Positions 35,086 to 60,992 of a DNA stretch of 64,000 nt are shown here, piece after piece; within the stretch, counting starts at the first letter, position 1; each line of letters begins with the position of its first letter. The stretch comes from Longimicrobiales bacterium (lineage in GTDB: Bacteria; Gemmatimonadota; Gemmatimonadetes; Longimicrobiales; Gaopeijiaceae), in assembly GCA_965198065.1 (NCBI GenBank), contig CBDAON010000004.1, forward strand, positions 2,805,022 through 2,869,021. Direction: 5' to 3'. Both the position numbers and the translations under genes were made by a program. The notes under the pieces were generated by a model. That model saw only the letters and a list, made by a program, of their open reading frames with translations, was not told where the DNA came from and did not search any database.

Positions 35086-35096
35086 GAGGCCGCCGC

Positions 35097-35411: not shown

Positions 35412-35420
35412 GGGGGCGGG

Positions 35421-36308: not shown

Positions 36309-36330
36309 CTCCTCGGCTCCTTCCTTGGCC

Positions 36331-37566: not shown

Positions 37567-38550
37567 TCACTCCTTTTCTGTTTGTTCTTCATCGTCCTTC
37601 CTCCATATCGTCTCCGTGAGCCAGCGATTGGCAGCCGAGTCGTAGCTCCGGACCCCGATCGCCTCCTCGACGAACCGTCGGCCCCCTCGCCGGGTCATGT
37701 GGACGACGAGATGGATGCCGTCGACCACGCCCCTGCAGGTGACCTCCCAGGGGAGCGCCCCTCCGGCCTGCATGGCGCAGCTGGCCAGGCGCGAGAGCGC
37801 GGAGCGGGCGTTGTTGGCGTGCACGGTGGTGAGCGATCCGCCGTGGCCGGTGTTGAGCGCCTGCAGCAGATCGGCGGCCTCGCCGCCCCTGACCTCGCCG
37901 ACGACGATGTGGTCGGGCCGGTGGCGGAGCGCGTGGCGGACCAGGTCGCGGATCGACACGGGCGCCTCGGAGCCCACCGCCCCGGCCTCGAAGCGCAGGC
38001 AGTTGGTCCGGTCGATCCGGAGCTCGAGCGTGTCCTCGATGGCGACGATCCGCTCCTCCTCTGGGAGCAGCTCGATCAGGGCGTTCAGGAGCGTGGTCTT
38101 GCCCGAGCCGGTGCCGCCCGAGACCAGGATGTTGCGCCGGGAATGGAGGGCGTCGCGGGCGGCCCGGAACACCGTCTCGGGGAGGGCCCCCTGGCCGACG
38201 AGGTCCTCGGCCGAGAACGCGCGGCCCCCGAACCGGCGGATGGTCATGGCCACGTGGGGGCTCGCGGGCGGCGTGCAGATGGCCACGCGGGAGCCGTCGT
38301 CGAGCCGCGCGTCTAGGACGGGCCGTGTGGCCGGATCGAGCCCGAGCGGCCTGGCGATGTGGATCGCCGCCCGATGGAGCGCGGCGGCGGTGAGCGCCGG
38401 TGCTTCGATGGGCTCTAGCTCCCCGCCGCGCTCGACCCAGACGTTGCCGGGGCCGTTGATCATCAGCTCGGAGACCTCCGGATCTTCGAGCACGGCCTCG
38501 AGGCCCGGCAGAAACGGTTTCAGGTGCCCGATGCCCGTGGCCCGCTTCAT
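37567..38550 (-). CDS. virB11: VirB11/CpaF-type secretion ATPase
   Basis: GGTGSGKTT, IEDTLEL, LRHRPDHIVVGEVRG, NTGHGGS. Confidence 0.9.
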   Translation of the reverse strand: MKRATGIGHLKPFLPGLEAVLEDPEVSELMINGPGNVWVERGGELEPIEAPALTAAALHRAAIHIARPLGLDPATRPVLDARLDDGSRVAICTPPASPHVAMTIRRFGGRAFSAEDLVGQGALPETVFRAARDALHSRRNILVSGGTGSGKTTLLNALIELLPEEERIVAIEDTLELRIDRTNCLRFEAGAVGSEAPVSIRDLVRHALRHRPDHIVVGEVRGGEAADLLQALNTGHGGSLTTVHANNARSALSRLASCAMQAGGALPWEVTCRGVVDGIHLVVHMTRRGGRRFVEEAIGVRSYDSAANRWLTETIWRKDDEEQTEKE

Positions 38551-39888
38551 AGCCGGCCCTCCTCGCGGAGCCGCCAGTAGCCCGTGCCCCTCGGCAGGTA
38601 GTGGGGTTTCAGGTAGACGCGCAGGGCCGGGAGCGACTTCGTGCCGTCGTAGGGCAGACAGATCGCCTGGTAGTTGGCCAACAGCGCGAACTCGCGCGGC
38701 GTGAACACGGGCTCCCTCTGCTGCCGGAACGACTTGCTCGCTCCGATCGTGCCCCGCCCGCCCCCGGCGCGTCCCGAGAGCAGAGAGAACTCCGGCCTGC
38801 CCGTGGTCTCGGTGAACGTGTAGGAGGGCTGCGTCTTCATGACGCTGCCGCACATCTCCGATGCGATCCTGGCCGAGGACTCGTCGCTCAAGGACAGGAA
38901 GATCCGGGTGCGGAGCGTCTGGACCAGCGTGCGCCAGGCCTCCGTGCCCGACAGCACGGAGCGGAGCGAGGAGATCGACTGCGTGGCGACGATCGGGATG
39001 CAGCGGCACTGCCGCGTCAGCGCGAACGCCTTCTCGTCGCCAGCGGGGTCGTCCTGGCCCACGGTGGCGAACGCCTGGTACTCGTCGCAGATGAAGACTG
39101 CGGGCCGGAGGTAGCGTCCGGGCCGGCGGGCGGCCTCGGCGGGCCGCCGGAGGAGCGCCTGCATCCAGGCGTTCTTGAGCAGCACGCCGATGGCGCGGCC
39201 GAGCGCCGGGTTCGCGCCCGCGGGCATGTTGAGGGCGAGGACCTTGCCGCCCTCGATCAGCTCCGTGAGCGGCGGCAGCCGGCGACGGAGCCCCGGCATG
39301 GGCCGGACGGCCTCGGGGTCCTCGTCCGGCGCATCGTTACCTATATGTATAGATGGGGACTCATCCGATTCCGGAGGCGGCGGACAGAAGACTCCGGCCA
39401 CGCCGGGCTGATCGAACAGCGACAGGAAGACCGAGATGCCCTCGACGATCGAGGTGCGGAGCTTGGCATCGAGCGCCATCCAGTCGTTCAGGTACCAGCG
39501 CTCGATCGCCTCCACCTGGTCCCTGAGTTCGCTCCCTGCTCCGCTCTCGCCTTCCTCGGTCTCGAACGGGATCCTGAGCTCGGCGAGCCGATCCCGGAGG
39601 ACCGGATCGAGCCGGCACGTCACCGTGTCCTCACCGGAGGTATATATCCAGACCCAGTCATTCAGCGCTTCCGGATGGCCGATCATGTCGTCGTGGGAGA
39701 TGACGACGCGCGCCGGGCACGCCTCAGCCACCAGGTCCTGGGCCTCGCGGATTCTCTCGGCGAACAGTTCCGCGTCGATCGTGCAGCGGTAGACATCCTG
39801 CAGCGTGACCCAGCCCCCCGGCAGGAGCCGGTGCAGTTCGACGATCCAGCGCACGAGATTCGTATAGGCTTGCTGCCAGAACGGCTCG
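38547..39888 (-). pseudogene. virD4: type IV coupling protein, C-terminal part
   Basis: EPFWQQAYTNL..., Walker B FICDEYQ, IVATQS. Continues the N-terminal part at 54245-54965. Confidence 0.85.
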
Positions 39889-40009
39889 TTCCTCGTGCGC
39901 GGTAAACTGGTTACTATGAACGCTTTACAGATTCCATAGGGGTTCCGTCCCCACCATTCTGTCCACCGGGAAGAAACGGATTCCGTTGGCTCTACCTAGC
40001 CGAGAACGG

Positions 40010-41065
40010 ACGTGACCGTTCGGCCAAGCTGTCACTGCTAGAACTGGCCTAGGAACTCGGCAACGTGTCGAAGGCGTGCCGGATCGTGGGCTAGAGCCGG
40101 CAGCAGTTCTACGAGATCCGGCGTAACTTCCAGGTGTACGGGGCCGAGGGGCTGCTGGACCGCATGCCGGGGGCGAGGGGGCCGCACCCGAACCGAGTTG
40201 CCTCGGAGGTGGAGGAGGCGATCCTGGTTCCCACGCGCTGGCGCACCCGGCGCACGGGGCGCAGCGGGTGGCCGACGAACTGATGCTCAGGGGTGTGGAT
40301 CCGGAACTGGCTGAAGACGCGTTGCGAACGGTTGCTGCGGCTGGAGAAGACGGTCCGGGAGAGCGACTTCGAGCTCACCGAGGAGCAGATCCTGGCGCTG
40401 GAGCGCTTCGACCCGGAGTACCGCGAGCGTCACATGGAGGTGAAGCGACAGGCGAACTCGTGGCCGTGGACACGTTCTTCGCGGGCACGTTGAGTGGAGT
40501 GGGCAAGGCCTACATCCAGACAGTGCTGGACTGCTTCAGCCGGTTCGTGTGGGCGTGGCTCTACACCTTGAAGAAGCCGGTGACGGCGGTCGAGATCCTG
40601 AACAACCATGTGCTGGCCTTCTTCGAGGAACACGGCGTGAAGGTCGAGACGGTGCTGAGCGACAACGGGCGGGAGTTCTGCGGTCGCGAGGACCAGCATC
40701 CCTACGAGTTGTTCCTGCAGCTCGAGGTGATTGAGCACCGCACCAAGCAGGTGGGCCGTCCGCAGTCGAACGGGGTTCATCGAGCGCTTCCACCGCACGC
40801 TCCTGGACGAGCACCTCAGGGTGAAGGGGCGGACCACCTGCTACTAGGCGGTCAGCGAGATGCAAGAGGATCGCGACGCCTACATCGAGACCTGCAACCG
40901 CAACCGTCCGTACCGCGTTAGCGGCATGGAGGGGCGAACGCCGTATCAGGTGTTCAAGAAAGGGATCCGCAAGCCACGGAGCCGGAAGAACTCAACCCGA
41001 AGACCGCAGCCTGAAGCGCTGACCTCGGCAAGGCACGGGTGTCAGGTGATCACCGTACTTGTACA
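40010..41065 (+). mobile_element. IS481-family transposase remnant
   Basis: ELGNVSKACR, GELVAVDTF, LSDNGREF, several stops and frameshifts, right end ...GTACTTGTACA. Confidence 0.8.
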
Positions 41066-41167
41066 TCCCATACCAGCACCGCTCGGATGCCCCATTGCGC
41101 GTCTTATGCCGAGGGCGCCTTCATGTGCAAGATCAGCCTCACATCGCCGTCACTCGCGAGAACGGCG

Positions 41168-42052
41168 CTATTGCCCTTCTTCCGGCTTGTTCCTCTCCGT
41201 TTCCCTTATCGCCGCATGAACCTGGAAGAGTTTCAACCAATACCTCTTGTAGGCGGGATTCTCGCGTACCTTCCTCTGTGCGGTGCAGTGATCGATTATG
41301 TTCGTGAGAAACCACAGGAATGGATATGCTGACGATCTTCCGAGTGCTGGCACGAGGCCCATATCACCGACCGTACAGAACTTCGATCCCGTAAACATCG
41401 TCTCGCTACCCATCGAAATCCGTTTTTGATCATCCGCCGGGATAAGCATGCCCTCCCCAAGTACAAAAAAGAGGTTCGGCCAAAGATCCCGCTCTACAGA
41501 TTGCAGTTCTTCGTTCACAACTTCGGCGAGCTTTTCAAGTGTGTAGTCAGTCTGATAGGCAAACACGCCAAAACATACTCCGTGGTTCTTGCTGTTCCAT
41601 GGCGCTTCATCATCGAACATCCCGAGCCTCTTTAGGCTCACGCAGTTAACCGTGGCATCCCTGATCGTGGACCTAGTCAACCGCGACTTCACTTGTATCG
41701 AAGCCAGACATGCCTCGATAGGGTGGTGACCGCTCCCGCCTGGCAAGATTGCTCCGGCGACATTCCTGTCGACAATCAAGATATCTTGTTCCTTACTGAC
41801 AGCCATCAGGTCAGTGAGTGCGAATCCCTTAACCGCTACCATTCCACCTGGCAGCATGTCGTCCAATACATCGAGCAGTGGCGTCTCCCGTGACGAACCC
41901 CGGTGACCTGGATGACGAATGGTGTCCTTCTGTCTTGCCAAGGAGTCTAACATCCCGAGTGTGCCTTCGAACCACTTCTCCATCTTGGTGGCGTCTATCT
42001 TCAATCCATCGAGTTTCCGTATCTCCCTTTTGAACTCGTCTCGGTTCACCAA
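41168..42052 (-). CDS. DUF6602-like putative PD-(D/E)XK nuclease
   Basis: HPGHRGSSRE...SKEQDILIVD...IQVKSRL, lower GC than the flanks. Confidence 0.6.
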   Translation of the reverse strand: MVNRDEFKREIRKLDGLKIDATKMEKWFEGTLGMLDSLARQKDTIRHPGHRGSSRETPLLDVLDDMLPGGMVAVKGFALTDLMAVSKEQDILIVDRNVAGAILPGGSGHHPIEACLASIQVKSRLTRSTIRDATVNCVSLKRLGMFDDEAPWNSKNHGVCFGVFAYQTDYTLEKLAEVVNEELQSVERDLWPNLFFVLGEGMLIPADDQKRISMGSETMFTGSKFCTVGDMGLVPALGRSSAYPFLWFLTNIIDHCTAQRKVRENPAYKRYWLKLFQVHAAIRETERNKPEEGQ

Positions 42053-42274
42053 ATCCTCTCCTTTTCGTTTGCGCTCCGTTCACGACCGACGGCCGCCCCA
42101 TCGGATCCGTGACGCGCTCCACGGGCCGCCACCTTATCGGAATTTGCTACTTGAGCGCGGGTTTCGGGCGGCGTTCGCCTCATTCGAAGCTCTTGGGGCT
42201 GACTCCACTGGGTGGAACACCGTCCGATGACCGCCGCGCGACCTGGGGAAAACAACATCGTCACGCGCAGGGTC

Positions 42275-43457
42275 TGACGTGACACCCGGAAGCTGAGCCA
42301 GCTATTCTCTGACTCCTCGGAGTAAGTGAGGAGTCATGAGGAAGAGTAGGTTCACGGAAGAGCAGATCATCGGGATCCTACGGGAGGCGGAGGCGGGCGG
42401 AGCGACGAAAGAGGTATGCCGACGCCACGGGATCAGCCACGACACGTTCTATCGGTGGAAGAAGAAGTACGGGGGCCTTGAGGTCAGTGACGCGAGGCGG
42501 TTGAAGGCACTTGAGGACGAGAACCGACGGCTCAAGCGCATCGTGGCCGACCAGGCGCTGAACCTTCAGGTGCTGAAGGACCTGCTGGGAAACGAGTTGT
42601 GACGGCCGGGGAGCGGCGCCAGGTCGTCCGGAGGGTGCAAGCCGCCGAGAAGGCCTCGGAGCGTCGAGTGGTCCGTTGGACAGGCTTCCCGCGTTCAACG
42701 ATCCGGTACCGAAGCGAGCGCCCAGCTCAGGAGGGGTTACGTGCGAGGATCCGGGAGCTCGCGGGCGAGCGGCCTCGCTGGGGCTACCGACGCATCCACG
42801 TGCTTCTGCGCCGCGAGGGATGGCTGGTGAACCGGAAGCGGATCCACCGGCTCTACCGCGAGGAAGGGCTCGCGGTGCGGCGAAAGGGTCGGAGACGACG
42901 GAGCCAGGTACCACGACCGGTGCGTGACCCACTCGGCCATCCGAACGAGCGGTGGAGCGTGGACTTCATCATGGACACGCTGAGTACGGGCCGAGTGTTC
43001 CGGTGCCTCGCGGTGATCGACGAGTTCAGCCGCGAGTGCCTGGCACTCCACGTCGCTCACTCGATCCCTGCGGCGAGCGTGATCGAGGTGCTCGAGAGAC
43101 TTCGGGAGGAACGCGGCTTGCCGGAGCGCGTGATCTGCGACAACGGCTCCGAGTTCACGAGCCGTGCCTTCGACGCCTGGGCCTACTCCCGGGACCTCAA
43201 GATAGAATACATACAGCCGGGCAAGCCGATTCAGAACTGCTTCGTCGAGAGCTTCCTCGGGAGCTTCAGGGACGAGTGCCTGAACCTCCACTGGTTCCTC
43301 TCCCTACGGGATGCGAGGCACACGATCGAACGCTGGAGGCAGGACTACAATCGCGTCCGACCCCACAGCGCCCTGGGCGATCTCCCACCTGCGGACTTCG
43401 CCCTCAACCACCACATGGAGTCAGGGAATAAACGGATCAACTAAGGGTGTCACGTCA
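42275..43457 (+). mobile_element. IS3-family element, apparently intact
   Basis: IR TGACGTGACACCC/GGGTGTCACGTCA, 4-bp TSD GGTC, orfA 42336-42602, orfB 42599-43444 with WSVDF and DNGSEF. Confidence 0.95.
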
Positions 43458-43521
43458 GGTCGATTCCCGATCTGTTCTCTTTCCAAGGGGAGAGGATGCA
43501 CCTCCAAATCGTCGGGAACGG

Positions 43522-46500
43522 TCACAAGTCCACTTCCGCGTCTGGATCGCCAGCAGCGAGTGCGCTCGTCCAGGCGAGGCACAGATCACGGGACCGGTAG
43601 GTGCCGTATGCGGCTTTCTCTTCTCGTTCGCCGATGGGGAACGTTGAGTAGATGTACCGAATGTCGTCGCGATCGGTAACGCCGTAGAGGTGGAAGTACA
43701 GCGCATCGAGCTTGGCGCGCAGGTTGAGGCGGCGATCGTCGTCCCACCGGAAGGGCGGCAGGACTTTGCCGTGCTCGTTCACATGGCCCATTTCACGCGC
43801 GAAAGGTGCCATGTCATGCGCTGCATACGTCAGTTCCAGCACCGCCTCGCGAATGATCTCCTCCGCTGTCTTCGGTCCAAACGACACGGCCTGATACCGC
43901 TCCAGCGGCACGACGGGGAGTTGTTCGACGATATACCAATTGAGATGCGTGCTCTGGACTTTCTGGCGAGCTACGAAATCGAGGACAGCAGCCCCAAGAT
44001 TGGCTAGAAGCAGGAAGGTGTTTGCGGACTCGGAATCCCCGCCTTCAGGAAAGATCGCGGGCAGAGTATTGCCGAGGCCGACTGCCGGGATTGCGGCAGC
44101 AATCATGGTCCTCGCGTCCGTCACACGGGCGATGTCACGGAAGGCAATGGTCCAACTGAGATTGCCTGGGAATGATATCTTCTTCCTCGGCACCCAGTAT
44201 TGCGGTGTTGGAACGAATGCCGGATCGGCCTTGCGTTCGGCGCCGACGTCGTCGCTCAGGGCAGGATTGTGGAGGTTCTCCTCGTTCATGTGGACCGAGG
44301 CAGCTCGGTGGTCGAATTGGTGGATCATGCGACCCACATAGAGCGGCACCCATTCCCCGGATGGGCTATCGAAACGGTTCCCCCCGATCGGCCAGGCACC
44401 TTCCTTCTCCTCCAGTTCCGGGCGGGTGCGGAACAGCTCGGAGTCGTTGGTCATATCGAACATCCGAGTGTACTTCACTGGCCATGTCTTCACCTCCTCA
44501 CCTGACGAGCGGTCGACCAACACCGGCAGGCGGTCGTAGATCGCGGTCGTGAGTTCCGCGTCACGCTGAGAGCGGAAGATCGGTGCCGTGCCGGTGTTTG
44601 GATTGACTCGGGCGAAGTCCGCGGCAGACAGTGGAAAGCACCGCTCCGGGTCTTCGAGTTCCGACACGTTCTGTAGGAAGAATGCGCAGCGGGCAGGTTC
44701 GTCCCAAGGTGCTGGGCTGGCGACGAAAGCGCAGAACTTGAAGCGGCTGTCCACATCGGCGAAGAACGGTGGCAAGTCGTATCGCGTCCGGCGGTTCTCG
44801 AAATCGTAGAGCGCCTTGAGCCTGTCCTCCGTAGCCACGCTCTTGAAGAACGGGGCCGCCGTCCAGTCTGATGCAATGCCGGATGGCACCAGCAGCCCAA
44901 CCATGCCATCGGGCTTCACCAGCGTCATGGCGTGTTCGACGAACAGCGAGTAGAGGTTGAGGTCGCCCCGTGCCAGCAGCGGATAGTCTCCCGATGTCCG
45001 GGCAACCCGCGCGGCGGCCGCCGCCCGCTCGCTTGCCAGCCGGAAGTCCCGGGCCAGCGGGTCTCCCGCCTTCTCGAGCGCGGCAATCATGCCCTTGCGG
45101 TCGGCGGCTCGCGGAGCCATGGCGATCTCGCGGCGGCGTGCCGCGAACCATTCGACCTGTTGCAGCTTCATCCGGTCCCAGGGCGGATTGCCGATCACGG
45201 CGTCGAAGCCGCCCGTCAACTCCGTGGCCTCCCATTCCGACCACACACCCGGGAAGGCGACCTGCCAGTTCAGGAACCGCTCGCTCGCGACGAGTTCCAG
45301 CGCAACCGTCAGAATGCCATCGGCCTCCGCCGAGCCGGACAGCCCCGTCTGGGCGATGTCGATCGGATTGCCGGACGTACCCTGTAGCCAATTCAGATAC
45401 GCGGCTTTGACCTCGCGTCTTCGAAGACCCAACCAGTCGAACGCGTGAAGCAGCGACATGAAGGCGTCCAAAGGAGCGGTCATCTCCGAGATTTCGGCGA
45501 ATATGTCGGCGGAGCGATGCGCTTCGGCGATCTCGGCATCCGTCAGCCCCTCGATGATCTGCATGGGCGCCGCCGCGCGCGTGGCTCGCTCGAGCGGCTC
45601 CCTCAGGAACAGACTGCTCGTCTCCTCCGTCCTGTGGACGGCGGGCGCCACCCAGGTGCCGAACAGGCTGTCGCCGCAGCGCAGGTGATGATCTAGAAAG
45701 CTGAGCGGCGCCCCGACAGTGAAGGTGTGGAGCCACAGCGACACCTTGGTCAACTCCACCGCCATCGGGTTCTTGTCCACGCCGTAGACACAGCGTTTGA
45801 GCACCATGCGGCGGACGATGTGCCGGTCGTCGAGCTGAGCCGGATCGAACGTCCAGCCACGGTCCTCGGCGTTGGCCATGATCGTGTTGCGGATCCCATC
45901 GATCCGCTCCACCAACGGCGATAGGTATCCCTCCACAAGCGCTTCGGCCTCGGCCATGGCCTCGATGACGCGGTCGGCGAGGTAGTCCACGAGGTTGACC
46001 AGGAAGTGTCCGGAGCCCATCGCCGGATCGCAGACCTTCAACTCAAGCAGTTTCTCCGCCGGGTCGAGCTGCTTCAGGCGGCCCATGCGGCGGTCCTCCG
46101 GCACCTGGCTTGACGGGATATCCTCCGCCTTGGCGGCGAACGCCTCCATGCGCGAGTCCGCGAGCGGTCCGACCGTCTCCCGCACGATCAGGTCAACCAG
46201 ATCGTCGGGCGTGTAGTAGCTGCCCGAGTCCTTGCGCGCGAACACGTTCGGACGGACCACGATGTTCCCATCCTCGCGAACGACCTCCCGTTCGAGCAGC
46301 CGCTCGTAGATCGAGCCGAGTTGCTGGACCCCGAGATCCCGGTAGTTGATGTACCGCCGCCTCGGGCCATTTCGCTCGAACGAAAGCGCATCGATCACGT
46401 CGGCCATCACCGTGTCGCCCAGCCGAACACGGGAGAGCAGGGGAGTGCGGTCGCGGTCGAACAACCCGCCGTTGTAGGGCGGCAGGCCGATAGAGGCATC

Positions 46501-47580
46501 ACCCGCATCGATGGCGCGGCATAGGTCGTCGAACGCCGACCAGTAGCGCGCCGCCGATGCCGAGAACACGTCGCCCTGGTCCTTGCGGCGGCCGATGTCG
46601 CCGCGCACCCGGTCCCGGAGCGCGTAGTCGTCGTAGCGGCTGTCGCGTACCGGCAGGAGATCGCGGTCTTCGGCGTAAAGCACGAAGAGAAGCCTGTAGA
46701 GCAAGACCAACGCTGCGTCGCGCACTTCGGGCAACGGGGCTTCGGGATCTGCCTTGGCCAGTGCCCGAACAAAGTCCGGGAAGACTTGCTCGAAGACCAA
46801 GACGGACAGGCTGCCGGCGACCCTTTCTTGATGGAAGCGTCCTTCCTCGATCGCCCGCTCGTGAAACGTTCGCTCGTCCGCCGCGTCGGGAAGGAAGGCA
46901 TCCCGCCGGAACACCAGCCAGAACACCCTGAGCCAGTGTCTCCGGACATCGGCCGGGATGGCGTCGTGGCCATCGCCCGGCATCCCGAGAACCGCCGCCA
47001 GATCAAGCTCGAAGAACTGTTCGGCGACCGAGCGCGCGCCCGCGTAGTACAGACGCCAGCGGGCGCCGTTCGTCAGAATGCCCCACCGGAGCTTGCCGGT
47101 GGTCTGGTCGTCGATGCGGCGGAGGTAGCGCAGCATCTGCGTCGAGGGCGCGGACTCCTCGCCCCGCCGCCCGGAGCGACGGTCCAGCGGTCGAAGCCAC
47201 CGTTTCGACTCGACCACCGCCAGGCCGTGCTCGTAGCGCTTCCACTCCTCGGCGAAGCGGTTCGCCCGGTCCTTCGAGGCGCCGTCGGCGAACAGCAAGC
47301 CGTCCGGCACGTCTTCGCGTCCGCGCGCCGAGAGGTTCTGCTGCCTGAGGCTGGCTGTCCAGCCGAGCCGCGCCAACACCGGCCAGATCAGGTCATCCTC
47401 GGTCTGGCTCTCGTTGGGCGACAGAGCCGTCGGGAAGCGGTTGAACAGGCCACGCAACGCGGCCTCGAGGTCTGCGAGTCCCTCGTCGGCCAAGTCCCGC
47501 CAGTCCCGAAGCTCGGCGATCGTTTCTCGAAGGAAGTCCTCGGCGAACAGGCTCCCCTCGAATGGCCGGACCATCGTCAT
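43522..47580 (-). CDS. type IIG (Eco57I-like) fused restriction-modification enzyme
   Basis: N-terminal VPD...VVESK nuclease motif, GSYYTP, CDPAMGSGHFL, IGNPPW, C-terminal specificity region. Confidence 0.88.
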   Translation of the reverse strand: MTMVRPFEGSLFAEDFLRETIAELRDWRDLADEGLADLEAALRGLFNRFPTALSPNESQTEDDLIWPVLARLGWTASLRQQNLSARGREDVPDGLLFADGASKDRANRFAEEWKRYEHGLAVVESKRWLRPLDRRSGRRGEESAPSTQMLRYLRRIDDQTTGKLRWGILTNGARWRLYYAGARSVAEQFFELDLAAVLGMPGDGHDAIPADVRRHWLRVFWLVFRRDAFLPDAADERTFHERAIEEGRFHQERVAGSLSVLVFEQVFPDFVRALAKADPEAPLPEVRDAALVLLYRLLFVLYAEDRDLLPVRDSRYDDYALRDRVRGDIGRRKDQGDVFSASAARYWSAFDDLCRAIDAGDASIGLPPYNGGLFDRDRTPLLSRVRLGDTVMADVIDALSFERNGPRRRYINYRDLGVQQLGSIYERLLEREVVREDGNIVVRPNVFARKDSGSYYTPDDLVDLIVRETVGPLADSRMEAFAAKAEDIPSSQVPEDRRMGRLKQLDPAEKLLELKVCDPAMGSGHFLVNLVDYLADRVIEAMAEAEALVEGYLSPLVERIDGIRNTIMANAEDRGWTFDPAQLDDRHIVRRMVLKRCVYGVDKNPMAVELTKVSLWLHTFTVGAPLSFLDHHLRCGDSLFGTWVAPAVHRTEETSSLFLREPLERATRAAAPMQIIEGLTDAEIAEAHRSADIFAEISEMTAPLDAFMSLLHAFDWLGLRRREVKAAYLNWLQGTSGNPIDIAQTGLSGSAEADGILTVALELVASERFLNWQVAFPGVWSEWEATELTGGFDAVIGNPPWDRMKLQQVEWFAARRREIAMAPRAADRKGMIAALEKAGDPLARDFRLASERAAAAARVARTSGDYPLLARGDLNLYSLFVEHAMTLVKPDGMVGLLVPSGIASDWTAAPFFKSVATEDRLKALYDFENRRTRYDLPPFFADVDSRFKFCAFVASPAPWDEPARCAFFLQNVSELEDPERCFPLSAADFARVNPNTGTAPIFRSQRDAELTTAIYDRLPVLVDRSSGEEVKTWPVKYTRMFDMTNDSELFRTRPELEEKEGAWPIGGNRFDSPSGEWVPLYVGRMIHQFDHRAASVHMNEENLHNPALSDDVGAERKADPAFVPTPQYWVPRKKISFPGNLSWTIAFRDIARVTDARTMIAAAIPAVGLGNTLPAIFPEGGDSESANTFLLLANLGAAVLDFVARQKVQSTHLNWYIVEQLPVVPLERYQAVSFGPKTAEEIIREAVLELTYAAHDMAPFAREMGHVNEHGKVLPPFRWDDDRRLNLRAKLDALYFHLYGVTDRDDIRYIYSTFPIGEREEKAAYGTYRSRDLCLAWTSALAAGDPDAEVDL

Positions 47581-47934
47581 CCGAGACCTCCAAAGCCCAA
47601 CAGCCCCGAGTCAGCTTGGTCGAGCAGCGCAATCCTTAGTATTGTCCAATCCTCCTCTGACAGTGATCCGGCCCGTGCATCCAAACTAGCTCCCACCGCG
47701 CTCGAGCGCGCCTCGTCGAAAGCCCACCCGAGCCTGCGAGCGAAGCGTCGCTTACGCTCGTCGGGAAGCTGACGGAGGTGCCGTCGCCGGAGGCCGGTCC
47801 GACTCCGGGACGGCGCTGGAACCCTTGGGAAATCGTCTTGATTCAGGCGGTTGACACCGCCCGAACGGGCCCTCTCTGTGTACAGTATGGAGATTCCGAC
47901 GACCCAGGATTCCCGGCGCCGGGAGCTGTCTCAC

Positions 47935-47970
47935 ACCCTTAAGGTGCGTAAGCCAGCCGACGCAGTGTTG
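47935..47970 (-). other. candidate oriT (ColE1-like nic)
   Basis: Minus strand CTGGCTTA at 47949-47956 matches the ColE1-type nic core and lies ~140 bp upstream of mobC. Confidence 0.6.
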
Positions 47971-48091
47971 AACACTGCGGCCTGGCAAGGGGGACGCTGC
48001 GCCCCCCTAGAACCCCCGGCTTCCCGCGCCGCTGAGCAATCAGCGGACGGGCGCGCGAGGCCGCGCCCGGAACCCCATCGCCGGTGCGCCC

Positions 48092-48430
48092 GTGCCTGAG
48101 CGCCGCACCGTGATGATCGCCGCGCGCGTCACGCCTGCGGAACACGCCGCCTGGCGGGAGAAGGCGGCCGCAGCGGGCGTGTCGCCGTCCGAGTTGTTGC
48201 GGCGAGCGATGGCGCAAACGCGGACGTGGACCGCGCCGGCACGCGCCGTCGAGCGTGATCGCACCCGCCAGATCGCGCGCATCGGAAACAACCTGAACCA
48301 GCTCGCGCGCTGGGCCAACACCCACGCCTCGACGGCCGAAGCCGTCTCGGTGATCGCCCACCTCGTCTCCTTCGAGCGCTCGCTGCTCCGTCTGGCCCAC
48401 ATCGGCGAGGACGGCGGCGATGCACCTTAA
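48092..48430 (+). CDS. mobC: MobC relaxosome accessory protein
   Basis: RHH-like N-terminus and ARIGNNLNQLAR. Confidence 0.9.
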   Translation: MPERRTVMIAARVTPAEHAAWREKAAAAGVSPSELLRRAMAQTRTWTAPARAVERDRTRQIARIGNNLNQLARWANTHASTAEAVSVIAHLVSFERSLLRLAHIGEDGGDAP

Positions 48431-49943
48431 GTTCCTGCCCCACGGAAAGGGCTCGGCCCGCGCGGCGGTCGAGTATCTCGTCGGCGAGCGGGACGCGGCG
48501 GGACACGAGCGCGAGGGCGTCGAAGTCCTGCGCGGCAACCCGGACATGGTGGCCGTCGTCGCCGACTCGCTCGACTTCGAGCGCAAGTACAGGTCGGCCG
48601 TGATCGCGTGGGCGCCGGACGACCGGCCGACCGACGAGCAGATCGAAACCGTCCTCGACGAGTTCGAGAAGACCGCGTGGGCCGGACTGGAGCCGGACCG
48701 CTACGCGTGGACGGCGGTTCTTCACCGCGAGCGCGGTGGCGGCGTCCACGCACACGTCCTCGCCGCGCAGTGCGACCTCCAGACGGGTCGCAGTCTGAAC
48801 ATCGCGCCGCCCGGATGGCAGAAGACGTTTGATCCGCTTCGCGACGCCTTCAACCACGAGCACGGCTGGAGCCGGCCGGACGACCCGGCGCGCGCGAGGG
48901 CGCAACGGCCGGGCCATGTGGCCTACATCGAGGCGTCGAAGCTGCGGGCCGGACTCGAACACGAGGCGGACCCGCGCACACTGATCCGCGACTACCTGGT
49001 GCAGCGCGTCGAGCACGGCGCGGTCAAGGGCCGCGCCGACGTGGTTTCCGCGCTGGAGGACGTGGGGCTGGAGGTGCCGCGCCAGGGCAAGGACTACATC
49101 ACCGCCCGCGATCCCGACAGCGGGAAACGGTGGCGGCTGAAGGGAGAACTGTATGAGCAAGACTTCGAGCCCGAACGACTTGACTTCCCGGCTGCGGCAG
49201 CGGCTGGAGGCCGACCGGCAACGGATCGAAGAGACGGCCGCGCGAGAGCTCGCGCGGCTCGGCGAGAGCTTGAGCGCCGTCGCAAGCGGCGCGCTGCGTT
49301 CCATCGAGGCCGATACGGAGGAAGCGACCGGGCGGATGCGCGAGTTGCTGATGAAGGCCTGGCTCCGGCCGCTGGTGGTCGGCATGAGCCTCTTCCTCGG
49401 TATCTGCGGCGGCAGCTGGGCGACGATGCACTGGCTGTCGAGGAGCATCCACGACCGGATCGAGACCTTGGGGGAGTTGGACGTTCGAACCGAGTGGGCG
49501 CGCACGATGCTGGCCGAGATCGAGGAGACGACCTGGGGCGTGGAGTTGCTGGAGAGCAGCGGGGACCGGTACGTGTCGCTGCCCGCCGGCACGCCGATCC
49601 GTCCGGCCTTCACCGTGAACGGGCGGCCCTACTTGAAGCTGTCGAGAGAGTGAGGAGGGAGCTGCGTGACCGATTTGGAACGGCAGTTGACGACCGCTTT
49701 GGAGAGGTTGTCCGCGCAGTACGAAACGGAACAGCGGCGGCACTCCGAACAGGTCGAAGCCTTGCGGCGGCAGGTCGTGGCCTTGCAGCGGCAAGTCGAG
49801 CGGCTGAGCGGGCGGGTGACGGACTTGACCGGATACTCCGGGACGTACGGCGCAGGGCCAAGCGGCAGGTGGAGATGACGAGGCGGCTGGTGGAAATGAC
49901 GAGGCGGCGCGGGCCGGACCGGGATCATGGTCCCAGCCGGTAG
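48420..49943 (+). CDS. MbeA/MobA-like relaxase (MOB_P)
   Basis: KFLPHGKGS...EYL, KYRSAVIAW, LHRE...VHAHV. Confidence 0.88.
   Translation: MHLKFLPHGKGSARAAVEYLVGERDAAGHEREGVEVLRGNPDMVAVVADSLDFERKYRSAVIAWAPDDRPTDEQIETVLDEFEKTAWAGLEPDRYAWTAVLHRERGGGVHAHVLAAQCDLQTGRSLNIAPPGWQKTFDPLRDAFNHEHGWSRPDDPARARAQRPGHVAYIEASKLRAGLEHEADPRTLIRDYLVQRVEHGAVKGRADVVSALEDVGLEVPRQGKDYITARDPDSGKRWRLKGELYEQDFEPERLDFPAAAAAGGRPATDRRDGRARARAARRELERRRKRRAAFHRGRYGGSDRADARVADEGLAPAAGGRHEPLPRYLRRQLGDDALAVEEHPRPDRDLGGVGRSNRVGAHDAGRDRGDDLGRGVAGEQRGPVRVAARRHADPSGLHRERAALLEAVERVRRELRDRFGTAVDDRFGEVVRAVRNGTAAALRTGRSLAAAGRGLAAASRAAERAGDGLDRILRDVRRRAKRQVEMTRRLVEMTRRRGPDRDHGPSR
49153..49653 (+). CDS. MbeB-like mobilization protein, overprinted in the relaxase
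   Basis: Coiled-coil, a single TM (WLRPLVVGMSL...) and TWGVEL. Position matches the ColE1 layout. Confidence 0.7.
   Translation: MSKTSSPNDLTSRLRQRLEADRQRIEETAARELARLGESLSAVASGALRSIEADTEEATGRMRELLMKAWLRPLVVGMSLFLGICGGSWATMHWLSRSIHDRIETLGELDVRTEWARTMLAEIEETTWGVELLESSGDRYVSLPAGTPIRPAFTVNGRPYLKLSRE
49666..49878 (+). CDS. MbeD/MobD-like protein, overprinted in the relaxase
   Basis: MTDLERQLTTALERL...QVERLSGRV coiled-coil with a GAGGAGG RBS-like tract upstream. Confidence 0.7.
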   Translation: MTDLERQLTTALERLSAQYETEQRRHSEQVEALRRQVVALQRQVERLSGRVTDLTGYSGTYGAGPSGRWR

Positions 49944-50002
49944 AGGAGTCCCAGCACCGGGAATCGGTCGGACGCTACCAGCATCGACGGAGGTCTTGGG
50001 CG

Positions 50003-51781
50003 CTATTGAACCGGCTCGAACTGTCCGAAGTACTCGGCGACGTTGCCGCTTATCTCGACGTTGAGCCTCTCGTCCAGAGAGTAGTTATCGAATAGCCAAT
50101 TCAGCGCTTCGTAATGACGGTCCACGAAATCAAGCAGGTCAGGACCAAAGCTGACGACCCCCGGCCTCACCGGCGTGACCGAACACAGGCAGGATGCGAT
50201 TACTCCCAGGGTCACTCCGTCCGTGGAAAGGAAATGGAACCAATAGGGAAATGCGTCGTCCAGCTTGGCGCAGAAGCGCCGCACCTCCGGGATGTCGCGT
50301 AGTTCTCGCGGGTCGTTGGAGTAACCGAGAAAGGCCAAATCCAAGCGCCCCCGATACCGTTCGACGGTGTCCCTGTCAGCGAGCACACGCGACAGGGTTG
50401 CGGCCGTACCGGACACGTCGAGGGCTTCCACTTCTGAGCGGTCTACGACCACATGGAGCCAGTCGGCATCCAAGTCTCCCCGGGACCCTATTTCAGCAGC
50501 TTCGTCGGTTATCCAGTCGCCCGATATGGGAGGGGAAATGATGTGGCTCCCCTCCGTGAGCGCTCGAACCCGCTCATGCGTAGTCGGGTCTGGCGCGTTC
50601 CCGGTTGCGGTTGGATCGTACACCACCGTCTTCCCCGTACGAAGGCCGAATCGGCTACGTGGGAACACACCGTGCTTGTGGGCGACCGAGAAGATATTCT
50701 CCAGCGCCTCCACGCAGCTATCCTCGGTAGGCTGGAAGAACGTAAGCTGTTGAAACTCCGTATGATCCAGAAGCAGGCAGGGAGTGCCCGTCTCGTCGAA
50801 CACGGAAAGGACAAGTGGGCTACAGTCTGGTCGGTCAGGGTCGAACAGCTCTTTGACGATGACGAGCCCGAAGACATCGCGGCCGAAGATGGACACCCGA
50901 CGGCGCTTCCCCTCGGTGATGATCTCGATGGACTGGCCAGATCGAAGGTGATTGATGGACCCCTTCAACTGAGCGGTCGCCTTCCTGACATGCTTGACGG
51001 CAGTGGCCCTCTTCCGACCGATCTCCCGTGTCAGTCCCGACTCCGTGCTTGGACTGTCCTTGGCCTGAATCAGCAGTAGGGTCTTGGTCGTTGCGACCAG
51101 GACGTCTACGAATTCCCGTCCGTTGTCGGCGCGAATCGGGTTCTTGAAGACATGGGCACCTCCGAACGGGCGATGGAGGGACGTGGCTATGTCGGGCTCG
51201 TTGAGATCGCCTGGGCTGGCGACGTGCTCAGCCAAGTTGTCGGGGAACAGCCGCTCCCGCAGGTGGATAGTGAACGCAGTGGCGTCGTCCGTCGGCGAGC
51301 GAGCGCCAAACCAGGATTGCATCGCGTCGAGGACCTGGCGCGCTGCGTTGAGGGTTGGCGACACGAAGCGAATCGCATCCGAGAGCACGCGAAAGCGATG
51401 AGCGTCCGGGTTCTCAACTCGGAAGCCGAGCAGTTCCCGATTATGCTCGTCGAAGAAGTGGACGTAGAAGGAGTCCGACGAGAGCAGCCCCACCAAGTCT
51501 CGCGAGATCTCCTCGTTGATGAGCGGCGTCCGGATGACGAGCGGTTCATCGTGGTCGTCGAAGAAGGCGGTCACCACACCATAGGTAGCCACGCCGTCGG
51601 CTTGGACAGGAACCAGGTAGAAGCGGAATTCTCCGCGCAGTCTGGCCGTTTGAGCCACCTCTCGCGAGGCCTTCACGACGAGAATCACTCGTGAGTCGCC
51701 AACGCGGCGAATTGGCAAGAGGCCGACCGGCATGTCCACGAGCCAGTCCAGAACCTCCGGGTTTGTGATGGTGAGCTGCAT
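50003..51781 (-). CDS. putative nuclease fused to a CRR6-like domain
   Basis: EFVDVLV...LIQAKD PD-(D/E)XK-like core and C-terminal GYSNDPRELRDIPEVRRF...FPYWFHFL. Confidence 0.55.
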   Translation of the reverse strand: MQLTITNPEVLDWLVDMPVGLLPIRRVGDSRVILVVKASREVAQTARLRGEFRFYLVPVQADGVATYGVVTAFFDDHDEPLVIRTPLINEEISRDLVGLLSSDSFYVHFFDEHNRELLGFRVENPDAHRFRVLSDAIRFVSPTLNAARQVLDAMQSWFGARSPTDDATAFTIHLRERLFPDNLAEHVASPGDLNEPDIATSLHRPFGGAHVFKNPIRADNGREFVDVLVATTKTLLLIQAKDSPSTESGLTREIGRKRATAVKHVRKATAQLKGSINHLRSGQSIEIITEGKRRRVSIFGRDVFGLVIVKELFDPDRPDCSPLVLSVFDETGTPCLLLDHTEFQQLTFFQPTEDSCVEALENIFSVAHKHGVFPRSRFGLRTGKTVVYDPTATGNAPDPTTHERVRALTEGSHIISPPISGDWITDEAAEIGSRGDLDADWLHVVVDRSEVEALDVSGTAATLSRVLADRDTVERYRGRLDLAFLGYSNDPRELRDIPEVRRFCAKLDDAFPYWFHFLSTDGVTLGVIASCLCSVTPVRPGVVSFGPDLLDFVDRHYEALNWLFDNYSLDERLNVEISGNVAEYFGQFEPVQ

Positions 51782-52009
51782 CAGGGAACCCCCCAGAGGG
51801 TGGCCTAGCGTGTCGGGAAGGAACGTTGGAGTGGAGCCTTGTAACAAGCTTTGCGGAGGTTCTCCCTACGATCAAGGTAGGCCTCTCCGGTCGCGCCAAA
51901 CGTGAGCCTCGGCAGGGTCAGGCGCTCTACAGCAGCCGGCTAACGTGAGATGCGTTGACGGCCTTGCAGCGGTGTGTCCCCTACTCGATCTCCCCAGCCC
52001 TGCGCCGGT

Positions 52010-52166
52010 CTAGATAGTAGGCCCAGTCGTCCATGAGCCGACGCCGGCGCTCGAACAGGTCCGTGCGCCGATAGGCCGCCTCGACCCCTGCTTTGGACCA
52101 TGTGAGCCCGGGGCCGGCTCGATGACCTCGCGCGGATGATCCGTCTCACCTCGGCCGCCCAGTCCC
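52010..52166 (-). pseudogene. degenerate duplicate of the integrase 3' end
   Basis: Aligns with ~52920-53060 (DWAAE...VEAAYRRTDLFERRRRLMDDWA). Confidence 0.8.
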
Positions 52167-52235
52167 AGCGGCGTTGCGGCGTCCACTGGGGAGGATACGG
52201 GCCACTCATTGAGGAGGGGACGGGATGCGCGTTGA

Positions 52236-52808
52236 TCAGTTTCCAGTTGCAGGGTGCGCGGGCGGATGGATTGTTGCAGTCTTATCTCGTATATGCTTTG
52301 AGGCGTGTTGTTCATAGACGGCAATCGCATCGTTTACATCGTCAGTTCGAACGAATTCATCGCTCCGGCCTTCTCTCTTGGATGCGGCCTCCATCAAGCG
52401 ATAGACAAGGCCTTGTACGACTTTGGTGAAGTAGATTGTACGACGGATGAAATCCAAAAGGAGTTCTTCGCCGTCCGCACGCCTCTCAATTCCTTTAGGC
52501 GGATTAACAAAGACGCGATGGTAGTTGTGCACGATCAGATTACGGGCATCGATCAGCCCATCTAACTCGACTGAATCAATCAGGAATGCATCTCCGAATA
52601 CTTTCACGATCCGACCTAGCGTGGCTTTTTGTTCTGCCAAATCGCCCCGTAGGAATTTTTCGGGATTCAAATCCCTGAAATGACGATCCTTTTTTGCCGC
52701 ATCGGTGTGCGCGGCGTGTGCAGCAATCCCATAGAGGGCAAATTCCAATCCTTGACTCAGGTAAACCGCGCGGCCGATAAGGCAGATTTCTGTTTCCCTT
52801 ATCTTCAT
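52236..52808 (-). CDS. hypothetical protein with a HEPN-like RxxxxH motif
   Basis: TLG...RNLIVH in a helical protein, low GC. Confidence 0.5.
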   Translation of the reverse strand: MKIRETEICLIGRAVYLSQGLEFALYGIAAHAAHTDAAKKDRHFRDLNPEKFLRGDLAEQKATLGRIVKVFGDAFLIDSVELDGLIDARNLIVHNYHRVFVNPPKGIERRADGEELLLDFIRRTIYFTKVVQGLVYRLMEAASKREGRSDEFVRTDDVNDAIAVYEQHASKHIRDKTATIHPPAHPATGN

Positions 52809-52894
52809 CTCCGGCTCCCAGGGTCCGGTTTCAGATCCTGCTATAGGCAGCAGGGCTCCTTCCACAAGTGAGGATAGTGTACGGCCGTGCAACC

Positions 52895-54088
52895 TCAACG
52901 CCAAAGGGCTAAGTAACGGGCCCAGTCGTCCATGAGCCGACGCCGACGCTCGAACAGGTCCGTGCGCCTGTAGGCGGCCTCGACCTGGTTGCGAACCATG
53001 TGTGCCAGCGCCGCCTCCGCCACCTCGCGCGGGTGGTTGGTCTCCTCGGCGGCCCAGTCCCGGAACGAAGACCGGAAGCCGTGCGGCACCGCCTTGATCC
53101 CGAGCCTCTTGAGCAGTCGGGACATCGCGGTATTGGAGAGCGGGTTTCCGCGCATCGGGAACACGAGCGGACTACCTCGACCCACCGCCCTCGCCTCCCC
53201 GAGGATCTCCAACGCGCGACGAGAGAGGGGGACCCGGTGCTCGCGGTTCGTCTTCGTGCGCGGGGCCGGAATGGTCCACACCCCATGGTCCACGTCGATC
53301 TCCGTCCACGCAGCCCCGCGGACCTCGCCGCCGCGGGTCGCTGTCAGCACCAGGAATTCGAACGCCAGCTTCACGAGCGGCTTCGAGTTCGAGGCCCGCA
53401 CCTTTCCGATCGCGGACGCAACCTCGGCGTGCGGCAACGCCCGCATGTGTTGCACCACATAGTTCTGCGCGCCGAGTGCCGGGCCGATCCGGTCGCAGGG
53501 GTTGTCCGCCCGGAGTTCCATCGCGACGGCCCATTCCATGACCGCCCGGATGCGTTGGTGGAGCTTCCGGGCGGTGGTCGCCTTCTGGTGCCAGATCGGA
53601 GCCAGAATCCCGATCACGTCGGCGCTCGTCACCTCCGAGATCGGCGTCTCGCCGATTCGGGGGAAGACATGGCGCTCCAAACTGCTCAGCCACAGCCGGG
53701 CATGGTGGGGGGAGCGCCACCCCGGACTCAGTTGATCCCGGAGCCGCCGCGCCGCCTCGGCGCAGGTCGGCATCGACTCGGCCCGCCGCTTCTCGGACAG
53801 GGGGTGGCCACCCTCGCGGGCCAGCTTCCGGTTCGCGAACGCCTTCTCGCGGGCCTCCTTCAGAGAGACCAGAGGGTATCCGCCGAGCCCGAACTCGGTT
53901 CGGCGGCCCCGGATCGTCAGGCGCTGAATCCAGCCCCGGCTCCCCGTGGGCCGGACATCGAGATAAAGGCCGTTCCCGTCGCAGTATCGTCCGGCCCGGC
54001 TCACGTTGCGGACGAAGGCCGGCGTGAGCGCGTTGTGCGGATGCTGGCCGCGCGGCTTGCGTTTCGGAGGTCGTCTCGAGAGCGGCAT
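52895..54088 (-). CDS. P4-type tyrosine integrase
   Basis: Arm-binding domain DGNGLYL...GLGGYPLVSLKEAR and catalytic TATRGGE, HGFRSSFRDW, LAH...AAY. Confidence 0.93.
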   Translation of the reverse strand: MPLSRRPPKRKPRGQHPHNALTPAFVRNVSRAGRYCDGNGLYLDVRPTGSRGWIQRLTIRGRRTEFGLGGYPLVSLKEAREKAFANRKLAREGGHPLSEKRRAESMPTCAEAARRLRDQLSPGWRSPHHARLWLSSLERHVFPRIGETPISEVTSADVIGILAPIWHQKATTARKLHQRIRAVMEWAVAMELRADNPCDRIGPALGAQNYVVQHMRALPHAEVASAIGKVRASNSKPLVKLAFEFLVLTATRGGEVRGAAWTEIDVDHGVWTIPAPRTKTNREHRVPLSRRALEILGEARAVGRGSPLVFPMRGNPLSNTAMSRLLKRLGIKAVPHGFRSSFRDWAAEETNHPREVAEAALAHMVRNQVEAAYRRTDLFERRRRLMDDWARYLALWR

Positions 54089-54244
54089 ACCCACCATTAT
54101 ATCAGCCACAATGTGGCGGATGCAAGGGGACGGCAGAGAACACCCACGGATCGCATCCAACCCTATATGTTCATTATAACTCAATGTATTCAAGCCACTT
54201 GTGTACGATATGGGACCTGTCTGGATGATCAGGTTATCCATAGA

Positions 54245-54965
54245 CTTGCTGCCAGAACGGCTCGCGGCTCTTGCCGAAGAGCTGGTTGATCAGGGATGAG
54301 ACGCTGTAGGCGAGCGAGTAAGTGTCGAGCAGCGGATCGTCGAGCGGGTTCCACTGCCAGGCGCCGTCGAGGCCGATCTCCAGGTAATCGTCGGCGCGGC
54401 CGGCGTTCTCGAGGATCCTCCGCACGTCGTGGCAGAAGTCGCCCTTGACCTCGAGCACCAAGGCGCTGGCCCGGCGTGCGGGCCGGTCGGCCTGCCACGA
54501 GAGGAGCTGCTGGGCGAACGGATACATGCAGGCCGAGGTCTTGCCGGAGCCGACGGCGCCGACGATGAGGACGCCGGTGTAGAGCCCCGTCTCGGGAACG
54601 ACGAGCCAGGAGGGCCGCTCGCTCTCTCGCGGGACGACGGGATGGTGGAGCTCGCCGATCACCAGCGATGGTGTCTCGTCCTCGGGCGAGGCGGGCCAGG
54701 GTGGCAACGTGCCCCGGCGCCCTCCTCCCGCTCGTGGCTGGAGCCAGACTCTCCAGACCGAGAGGCCGAGGCTGCCGGCGAGCAGCACGGCGACGGCGGG
54801 CGCGGCGTAGTACCAGACGCGGATCACGGTGTGGAAGCCCGGATCGTGGTAGGCGATGAGGTCGAGCACGGGGTTGCCGCCGCTGGCGGGAAACGGCGCC
54901 CGGAAGGCGTGGACGATCGCGGCCGCCGCGGCGGCGCCAGCCAGGATCAGCGCGGGCCGCCTCAT
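54245..54965 (-). pseudogene. virD4: type IV coupling protein, N-terminal part
   Basis: Two TM segments and Walker A GAVGSGKT, ending ...SREPFWQQ at the att repeat. Confidence 0.85.
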
Positions 54966-54999
54966 CGCTGTGACAACCTTCCCGTAGGGATCCATGGAT

Positions 55000-55092
55000 G
55001 GGAGCGACCCCCCGTGGGAGGGTGGCATGGGTGTGCACATGCCAACCCTCCCCGATGCTGATCGAGGCATCCCGAAAGGGGGGGTCGCTCCC
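55000..55092. other. nested inverted-repeat structure, candidate ICE oriT or structured RNA
   Basis: A 14-bp perfect outer stem (55000-55013/55079-55092) encloses two further hairpins. Confidence 0.5.
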
Positions 55093-56205: not shown

Positions 56206-56870
56206 CTGGGCGGCTCCGTGACCAGGGCACGGTCGGCCTGGAGGTAGGTGATGAGGATGCCCATCGGGTTGTAGACGACGAGTTCGGAGGGGATGACGGT
56301 GAGGAACGTGAACCGGAGCGTGATCGACCACCGCTCCCGCAGCGTCTCCTGCCCCTGCCGGAGGCGGACCAGATCGAAGTCGGCGGTCGCGCCGTGGGGC
56401 GCCTCCGGTGCGGGGTGGATGCGGAGCACGACCTGCTCGACCTGGTGCTCGGTGTCGGAGGTGCCGGCCGCCATGGCGGCGACCTCGGCGCCGTCCCTCG
56501 TGAACGCGGCGTTCGCCAGCTCGGTCGAGAGGAAGCGGAGGCTCCGGGTCCAGTGCTCCTCGACCGTCGCCCGTCGCCGCGAATAGAAGTCGGAGATGAA
56601 CCGGTTTAGGAAGTATTTGGTCGTGGGATCGAGCGGATCCGCCTGCGCCGTGGCGGCCTCGTAGGCCACGGCCTCGGCACGGCCGACCTCGTCGACCCGG
56701 ACCACGATCGGGCGGGGCGGCTCGACGGTCGCGATGCGGAGCAGGAGCACGCCGAGCGTGAGGCACGCGGCGGCGAGGATCATCGCCAGCGTCCGGAGCT
56801 TTCGGTTCGCTTGCACGGTCTCGCCCCAGATCTCCGCGTACTCGCGGCCGGCATCGCGTTCTCGGTTCAT
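56202..56870 (-). CDS. virB8: VirB8/TrbF family protein
   Basis: One TM, IVVRVDEVG and C-terminal YNPMGILIT. Confidence 0.8.
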   Translation of the reverse strand: MNRERDAGREYAEIWGETVQANRKLRTLAMILAAACLTLGVLLLRIATVEPPRPIVVRVDEVGRAEAVAYEAATAQADPLDPTTKYFLNRFISDFYSRRRATVEEHWTRSLRFLSTELANAAFTRDGAEVAAMAAGTSDTEHQVEQVVLRIHPAPEAPHGATADFDLVRLRQGQETLRERWSITLRFTFLTVIPSELVVYNPMGILITYLQADRALVTEPPR

Positions 56871-56881
56871 GGATGTCTCCT

Positions 56882-57892: not shown

Positions 57893-57910
57893 GACAGTCG
57901 CTCCCGGGGC

Positions 57911-58819: not shown

Positions 58820-58836
58820 GATGAGCTCCTTGTTCG

Positions 58837-60986: not shown

Positions 60987-60992
60987 GGCGTG

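Follow-up and report, generated by a model that had tools for sequence, protein, structure and literature searches.

The stretch analysed here, called the window below, comprises 64,000 nucleotides of the genome of an uncultured Longimicrobiales bacterium (GCA_965198065.1, contig CBDAON010000004.1, positions 2,805,022 to 2,869,021). It contains part of a conjugative host backbone whose coupling-protein gene, virD4, is split in two by a 14,376-bp insertion carrying its own integrase and mobilization module. The coordinates of all features are collected in Table 1. The chromosome, whose contig ends overlap, holds three copies of the host backbone (A, B and C, the window's being copy A), in the order cro-like/alpA/virB2-B4-B9-B10-trbJ-B6-B8/unknown (311-aa)/virD4/virB11/ardC. 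A preliminary description, made from the sequence alone, had proposed that the insertion is a mobilizable element which restores virD4 on leaving, and that conjugation works only once it has left.

The insertion is bounded by a 25-bp direct repeat (39864-39888 and 54240-54264), whose two copies differ by one mismatch (position 5), and exact matches to its 20-bp core in the 3.05-Mb genome are confined to these two places. The N-part of virD4 ends with ...KSREPFWQQVYG and a stop codon, reading EPFWQQVYG before the stop, and the frame of the C-part reads EPFWQQAYTNLVRW. When the intact copy B was aligned to the window, the alignment covered 35094-39887 and then ran straight on to 54240-62835; because it jumps from 39887 to 54240, the repeat can be taken to mark the true junctions. 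Computed excision gave a 680-aa virD4 frame with no internal stop at all five crossover positions tried, and the rejoined protein aligned to the two intact paralogs of the same genome with 85.4% and 89.0% identity and no gap at the junction. The proposed direct repeat, the in-frame fusion on its recombination and the descent of both halves from one full-length coupling protein were thus all borne out. In the rejoined protein, Walker A is at residue 136 and the Walker B-like motif at 498, with EPFWQQ between them at 235. The split parts Walker A from Walker B, so neither virD4 half should work, and with the virB11 start overlapping the virD4 stop the insertion may also be polar on virB11 downstream.

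At the proximal end of the element lies a P4-type tyrosine integrase, which is intact, as first described: the three P4-type domains and the catalytic residues R-K-H-R-H-Y are all present. Its target is virD4, not the tRNA or housekeeping gene usual for P4-type integrases, and there is no tRNA within the window. No sigma-70 promoter was found near the integrase. Arm-like motifs had been noted near both ends. CCCACCATT occurs twice in the window (39950 and 54090) against 0.21 expected, a count reached in 3 of 100 shuffles for a motif that was picked after the fact, and the distal copy lies within a longer motif kept at four related element ends. The motifs themselves are thus confirmed, and these observations support, without proving, their prediction as arm-type sites.

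The mobilization module consists of mobC followed by an overlapping relaxase gene and two downstream ORFs. The relaxase matches PF03432, carries an H-x7-H-x-H motif and scores 115 bits against NF047848, below the cut-off of 500; among its plasmid matches, 3306 of 3447 records are typed mobilizable. In ColE1, the mobilization region is laid out mbeC-mbeA-mbeB-mbeD and the MbeA relaxase (MOB-HEN) has an HEN motif. The order of genes in the element is like that of ColE1, and from their position we presume the two ORFs, which have no Pfam match, to be mbeB and mbeD; the element differs from the ColE1 region in being integrated rather than a plasmid and in its three-histidine motif. The relaxase probably works like MbeA, yet it is not classed as a ColE1 MbeA (MOB-HEN) member. 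No match to VirB, VirD4, mating-pore or coupling proteins was found inside the element. With its own integrase and flanking att repeats, its own relaxase module and no mating-pore genes, it is an integrative and mobilizable element (IME), as the preliminary description had suggested. The type IIG fusion and the DUF6602/NucC-like nuclease are defence cargo. The IS3 insertion is recent; an IS3-free form of the element is found in contigs of run X3.

Table 1. Features of the virD4 locus and the inserted element, in window coordinates.
Feature	Position	Strand	Remarks
Host virB11	37567..38550	-	directly downstream of virD4
virD4 C-part	38547..39888	-	Walker B-like VFICDEYQ at 498; TraG-D_C, TrwB_AAD_bind; stop overlaps virB11 start
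Integrase-distal att repeat	39864..39888	.	virD4 C-part resumes here
Conserved distal-end motif with CCCACCATT (39950-39958)	39941..39990	+	predicted arm-type site
Degraded IS481-family transposase	39990..41050 (approximate limits)	+	
DUF6602 / NucC-like PD-(D/E)XK nuclease	41168..42052	-	cargo
IS3-family insertion	42274..43457	+	eight other full-length genome copies, 99.8-100%
Type IIG restriction-modification / DrmMI-like fusion, 1352 aa	43522..47580	-	orthologs in sisters G464 (90%) and G337 (79%)
mobC	48092..48430	+	NikA-like/MobC relaxosome accessory protein
MbeA-like MOBP relaxase	48420..49943	+	PF03432; three-histidine motif
Two ORFs	49153..49653, 49629..49928	+	positions of ColE1 mbeB and mbeD; no Pfam match
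614-aa cargo ORF	50003..51847	-	weak Crr6 match; ortholog in G123 sister element, 82% identity
Second, partial copy of integrase 3' end	52007..52166	-	82% identity
222-aa ORF	52236..52904	-	no family found
P4-type tyrosine integrase	52895..54097	-	Arm-DNA-bind_3, Phage_int_M, Phage_integrase; likely start 54088 or 54097
CCCACCATT, proximal	54090..54098	+	predicted arm-type site overlapping integrase start region
Integrase-proximal att repeat	54240..54264	.	within virD4 EPFWQQ codons 235-240
virD4 N-part	54234..54965	-	start 54965; Walker A GAVGSGKT at residue 136; stop 3 codons past EPFWQQ
Branched hairpin	54977..55092	.	upstream of virD4; candidate host oriT
Host operon: 311-aa gene, virB8, virB6, trbJ, virB10, virB9, virB4 C-part	55270..62835	-	
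End of second ~4.3-kb P4-integrase element	62825..64000	.	splits virB4 near residue 205; runs over the contig end into C4:1-3100

The three host copies differ in their state. In copy B, virD4, virB2, B4, B6, B8, B9, B10, B11 and trbJ are all intact. In copy C, virD4 is intact, but other P4-integrase elements, whose repeats measure 19 and 11 bp, interrupt virB8 and virB4. In copy A, both virD4 and virB4 are split, the latter by an element nearly identical to that in copy C. Furthermore, a 387-aa family integrase is present in copies B and C and in 42 of the 53 related loci with enough sequence, and was not found near copy A, where there is only a distant XerC-like gene (31489-32490). A search for direct repeats bounding the host copies gave none that was convincing. 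Having mating-pore genes together with a coupling protein, the host element is likely an integrative and conjugative element (ICE). The closest virD4 records have titles that mostly name Longimicrobiales or Gemmatimonadota metagenome-assembled genomes; Ca. Palauibacter is associated with sponges.

Close relatives of the integrase were found in 46 of the 401 genomes of the class that were surveyed, with four candidates scored per genome. Integrases from this genome, from the relatives' loci and from 80 metagenome loci were pooled (147 matches, 118 after duplicate removal), each was labelled by the flank adjoining its start, and a FastTree tree was built from 115 of the 118 rows, with three left out as below 29% identity or too short; the deep branching of this tree is not relied on. 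The query integrase falls in an 8-row clade with an SH-like support of 99, in which the FWQQ core lies beside the integrase in every row and directly after a virD4 N-part in five. A search with an att-end pattern that excludes the upstream virD4 flank found matches in 4 of 314 genomes and in 2 of 114; the reversed control run alongside gave none. This added G464, G444 and G219, all three after virD4, of which G219 is a further virD4-site case with a partial integrase. Five relatives of the query, drawn from one metagenome and from two families of the class, come after the virD4 codons that the query follows, and the host virD4 N-parts at these five other occupied sites are 72-88% identical to copy B. 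In G464, a complete sister of 17,965 bp has both att sites in virD4, and the gene is split again near residue 254 by a second element. Integrases that are 96-98% identical occur in three genera, and one nearly identical pair spans two families, which indicates recent mobility, so far as comparison of sequences can tell.

The insertion could instead be a one-off event at a secondary site, made by an integrase whose real target lies elsewhere. In line with this, the core stands beside non-virD4 DNA in 3 of the 8 clade members, and among intact virD4 genes it is moderately conserved. The idea that the element occupies the most conserved stretch of virD4 was rejected for that reason, the site having a mean identity of 0.925 and ranking 492 of 2015 windows across 65 intact rows. 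However, the same codons are occupied in five other records, and even in the foreign locations the element's end carries virD4 codons; the three foreign flanks differ among themselves. One such element, in G194, whose genome has no virD4 match with this query, fits the pattern expected of a secondary site; such sites are a minority within the clade. Repeated occupancy of the site, which had been named at the outset as a check, has largely refuted the one-off explanation already, and we regard it as highly improbable. We conclude that the 14,376-bp insertion is a real, site-specific IME in virD4, and that it is probably mobile. At one further locus (L048), the core contains a one-base insertion, which is possibly an assembly error and was not used as evidence.

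Under the strict gatekeeper model implied by the preliminary description, the host's only coupling protein is held hostage and transfer takes place only once the element has excised. The separation of Walker A from Walker B is compatible with such a role, as is the absence of internal stops from the virB genes that precede the split virD4 in G123, G444 and L194; also in its favour, the alpA gene at the head of the virB operon offers a timing device. The best case for a true gate is G464, where the only virD4 C-part found belongs to the gene that is split by two elements. In the present genome, however, the model is not supported: virD4 is intact in copies B and C, the transfer genes of copy B are intact, and copy A itself has a split virB4 and lacks the 387-aa integrase. 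Intact virD4 paralogs are likewise present in G123 and G444, with seven and two further virD4 C-part matches, respectively, in open frames of 727-813 aa. In a survey of virD4 loci, covering the best 80 of 176 stretches, 64 of 79 loci were intact, 10 carried an interruption and 2 a frameshift, and 3 were truncated at a contig end. Moreover, sister clades sit in ardC, in repeat-protein genes, in the ends of other integrases and just upstream of virD4, where no gate would be needed. A strict gate is therefore unlikely.

The search for excision products covered the assembled contigs of seven distinct runs (four runs at 90% and four at 99%, one of them repeated). Neither an attP circle nor an exact empty attB, the two products that the preliminary description had named as a check, was seen in these contigs, which drop rare forms. 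Among the matches listed at 90%, one run contained a joint from 39891 to 54270 with two other letters, which fits a paralog and not excision of this allele; at 99%, loss of IS3 was the only change seen. According to passages in PMC5704250, PMC9376610 and PMC3014918, a directionality factor is in general required by elements with a tyrosine integrase, a role that AlpA homologs fill. Searches with PF05930, phmmer and HTH_17 found no alpA or HTH_17 gene in the element, and alpA lies before virB2 in each host copy. Among relatives grouped by integrase identity, alpA is found within 900 bp of the integrase in 5/5 sisters at 83-94%, and in 0/3 at 95% or above, 0/20 at 75-82% and 0/41 at 55-74%. AlpA proteins of the ICE and IME types are on average 62% alike, compared with 61% among those of the ICE type, and cross-use of host AlpA by the element's integrase is plausible.

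These data bear on a further alternative, in which the copy is stranded in a decayed host, kept for its defence cargo, and leaves inactivated host copies as its lasting effect. Such a fate would accord with the missing alpA, set against its presence in all five sisters at 83-94%, with the IS481 remnant and the IS3 insertion inside the element, with the absence from copy A of the 387-aa integrase and of an S24 repressor, and with the lack of excision products in the contigs of the seven runs. Against it, the integrase, mobC, the relaxase and both att sites are intact, an integrase with no adjacent alpA is the norm in the wider radiation, and the alpA-less lineage at 96-98% has reached three genera. 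We consider a permanently stranded passenger improbable.

The reading that we favour, with a probability of roughly 0.68, is that the element belongs to a clade of IMEs that inserts at one fixed site in virD4, likely excises precisely and is likely exported by the machine of the host family, either in trans or after restoration in cis. In this genome it is likely a hitchhiker on a decayed host copy and not an obligatory switch, because intact couplers are available in trans here and in G123 and G444, and because copy A has further lesions. In such a cycle, the integrase, together with an AlpA-type directionality factor, would excise the element. With no alpA in the element, this factor would come from trans, plausibly from the alpA gene at the head of the host virB operon, and its use would time excision to the induction of the transfer genes. 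MobC and the relaxase would then nick the predicted oriT of the element, a VirD4/VirB machine of the same family, such as one drawing on the intact virD4 of copies B and C, would export it, and it would insert into virD4, either that of the helper or that of any copy already resident. Such a landing site would move together with the helper, to the element's advantage and at low cost to the cell.

Several observations weigh against this account. Beyond the three clade rows with a non-virD4 flank at the core, only two of the five members found from the integrase side (G386, G123, G194, G337 and L194) directly follow virD4. The excision search, within the limits of contigs, came out negative, and alpA is frameshifted in copy B. 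Finally, no relaxase was found in the host backbone, which gave no PF03432 or PF13814 match, and the host is therefore only putatively self-transmissible. A branched hairpin between the 311-aa gene and virD4 (z = -5.3), of which the genome has about eight further copies, is a candidate oriT of the host family.

The habit of sitting in a helper's coupling gene has precedents. Serine-integrase IMEs occupy traG (VirD4) of streptococcal Tn5252 ICEs, and passages in Coluzzi et al. 2017 (PMC5357655) and Guedon et al. 2017 (PMC5704250) propose, as a hypothesis for traG, that their excision restores transfer. As described there, IME_Sco1050_traG_site1/site2 and Tn6104 resemble the present element in their site-specific disruption of a host ICE coupling-protein gene, with several sites in each gene; a virD4 that holds two elements (here in G464), decayed hosts and the same restoration hypothesis are further likenesses. 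The differences lie in the integrase (serine there, P4-type tyrosine here), in the host (Firmicutes Tn5252 there, a Gemmatimonadota VirB/VirD4 system with TrbJ, VirB8, VirB9, VirB10 and VirB11 here), in the MbeA-like relaxase module of the present element and in its sister clades, which target virB4, virB8, virB11, trbJ, ardC and the mob genes of sibling IMEs. A conjugation feature of the host ICE is likewise the target of the tyrosine-integrase IMEs, cited in PMC5357655, that occupy the putative oriT of Tn916/ICESt3 ICEs. They are paralleled here by a sister clade of ~80% identity just upstream of virD4, beside the candidate oriT, whereas the window's element interrupts a coding sequence, in another host ICE family and phylum. 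The proteobacterial IMEs GIsul2, SGI1 and MGIVflInd1 share the tyrosine integrase, the need for a directionality factor and the reliance on a helper, and SGI1 and the MGIs time their excision to helper regulators. They differ in sitting at the ends of housekeeping genes and in that most lack a relaxase of their own; passages on them in PMC9376610 and PMC5704250 describe no insertion into helper transfer genes.

We found no paper on a tyrosine or P4-like integrase in virD4; TIGER/Islander island tables and supplements may hold precedents. Passages of PMC12084326 and PMC10484663 add no tyrosine-integrase case, and broader searches, at the level of titles, returned none on this Gemmatimonadota lineage. 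The gatekeeper idea is already in print as a hypothesis, and is not needed in this genome; the differences from the printed cases lie in the integrase type (tyrosine), in the host lineage (Gemmatimonadota) and in how broad the range of targets is. The element represents an independent origin of the habit of sitting in essential conjugation genes, with a tyrosine integrase and in a Gram-negative-type transfer system. The leave-on-induction hypothesis for the streptococcal serine-integrase elements dates from 2017, and it is testable here: the att core is short, intact paralogs can serve as controls, and host AlpA is a candidate trigger.

Turning to the wider radiation, sister clades were found inserted the other way round at the same virD4 site (G283), immediately upstream of virD4 and at 177-185 and 245-256 within it, as well as in virB4 (near 206), virB8 (near 67), virB11 (near 395) and trbJ (near 203). 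Further targets are ardC, the 311-aa gene, the 3' ends of sibling integrases and repeat-protein genes. The integrases at trbJ and at virD4 245-256 (~30% identity) form a separate, distant group, and tRNA flanks were seen only in relatives of at most 57% identity. This map of targets by clade amounts to a natural series of integrases with shifted specificities, and the breadth of retargeting and the possible use of host AlpA are the parts worth attention. A bolder and rather doubtful possibility is that, in these Gemmatimonadota, tRNA-derived P4-type integrases have been retargeted onto the majority of the conserved genes in one conjugation operon and onto each other's mob and integrase genes, and that the AlpA from the head of the host virB operon frees all the nested elements, few of which have an excisionase gene beside them. 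If this were true, induction of transfer would begin by reassembling the operon through programmed excision, with every passenger leaving alongside it.

Several loci in this radiation deserve separate mention. Integrase clades at L137, L140, L141, L145 and L204 lie in the mbeB-like ORF or the relaxase 5' end of sibling IMEs and are in this sense parasites of passengers. The clade at sibling-integrase 3' ends (L123; G000:C4:380386) builds tandem arrays, and the duplicated integrase end at 52007-52166 of the window may be a scar of this clade. A clade at ~78-80% integrase identity, all of family f7 (L130-L133, L135, L163, L165, L172, L173, L175, L179 and L180), shares one short conserved motif among many different flanks. 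In the seven loci scanned no Rfam family explains this motif, and tmRNA was rejected as the target of the ~78% clade, with no Rfam tmRNA match. By motif inspection only, the integrase-clade flanks at L142, L143, L146-L148 and L151 resemble repeated domains of large surface proteins.

The second element in copy A, of ~4.3 kb, also splits virB4 in copy C (G000:C4:1344953-1349262). A full relaxase is missing from it, but it contains the hairpin that also lies upstream of virD4, and it may be an oriT-only passenger; in copy A, its integrase gene carries a surplus C within a C-run, possibly an assembly error and not used as evidence. Further into the host backbone, the 311-aa gene (55270-56205), between virB8 and virD4, is conserved, with 2224 homologs among 8000 candidates. 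Its protein has no Pfam family, falls in unnamed Atlas clusters and has no significant PDB sequence match; the structural model (pLDDT 85.7) shows weak winged-helix similarities in the N-terminal part and no Foldseek match at E<=0.001. We consider it a candidate non-canonical relaxase or regulator. An ardC-like antirestriction gene at 35421-37570 is broken across several frames, and left of the host element lies a very large fibronectin-III/Calx-beta/cadherin repeat gene, in several frames (22800-31329). Elsewhere in the genome, an S24-peptidase repressor (G000:C4:469356-470069) is divergent from the cro-like/alpA/virB2 operon of copy B and was not found beside A or C; its position suggests DNA-damage control of transfer. 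Finally, a second mobC-mbeA IME (G000:C4:493600-507421; 79% integrase identity) lies immediately upstream of a fourth virD4 N-part; this part ends within the FWQQ core and is followed by an apparent IS remnant.

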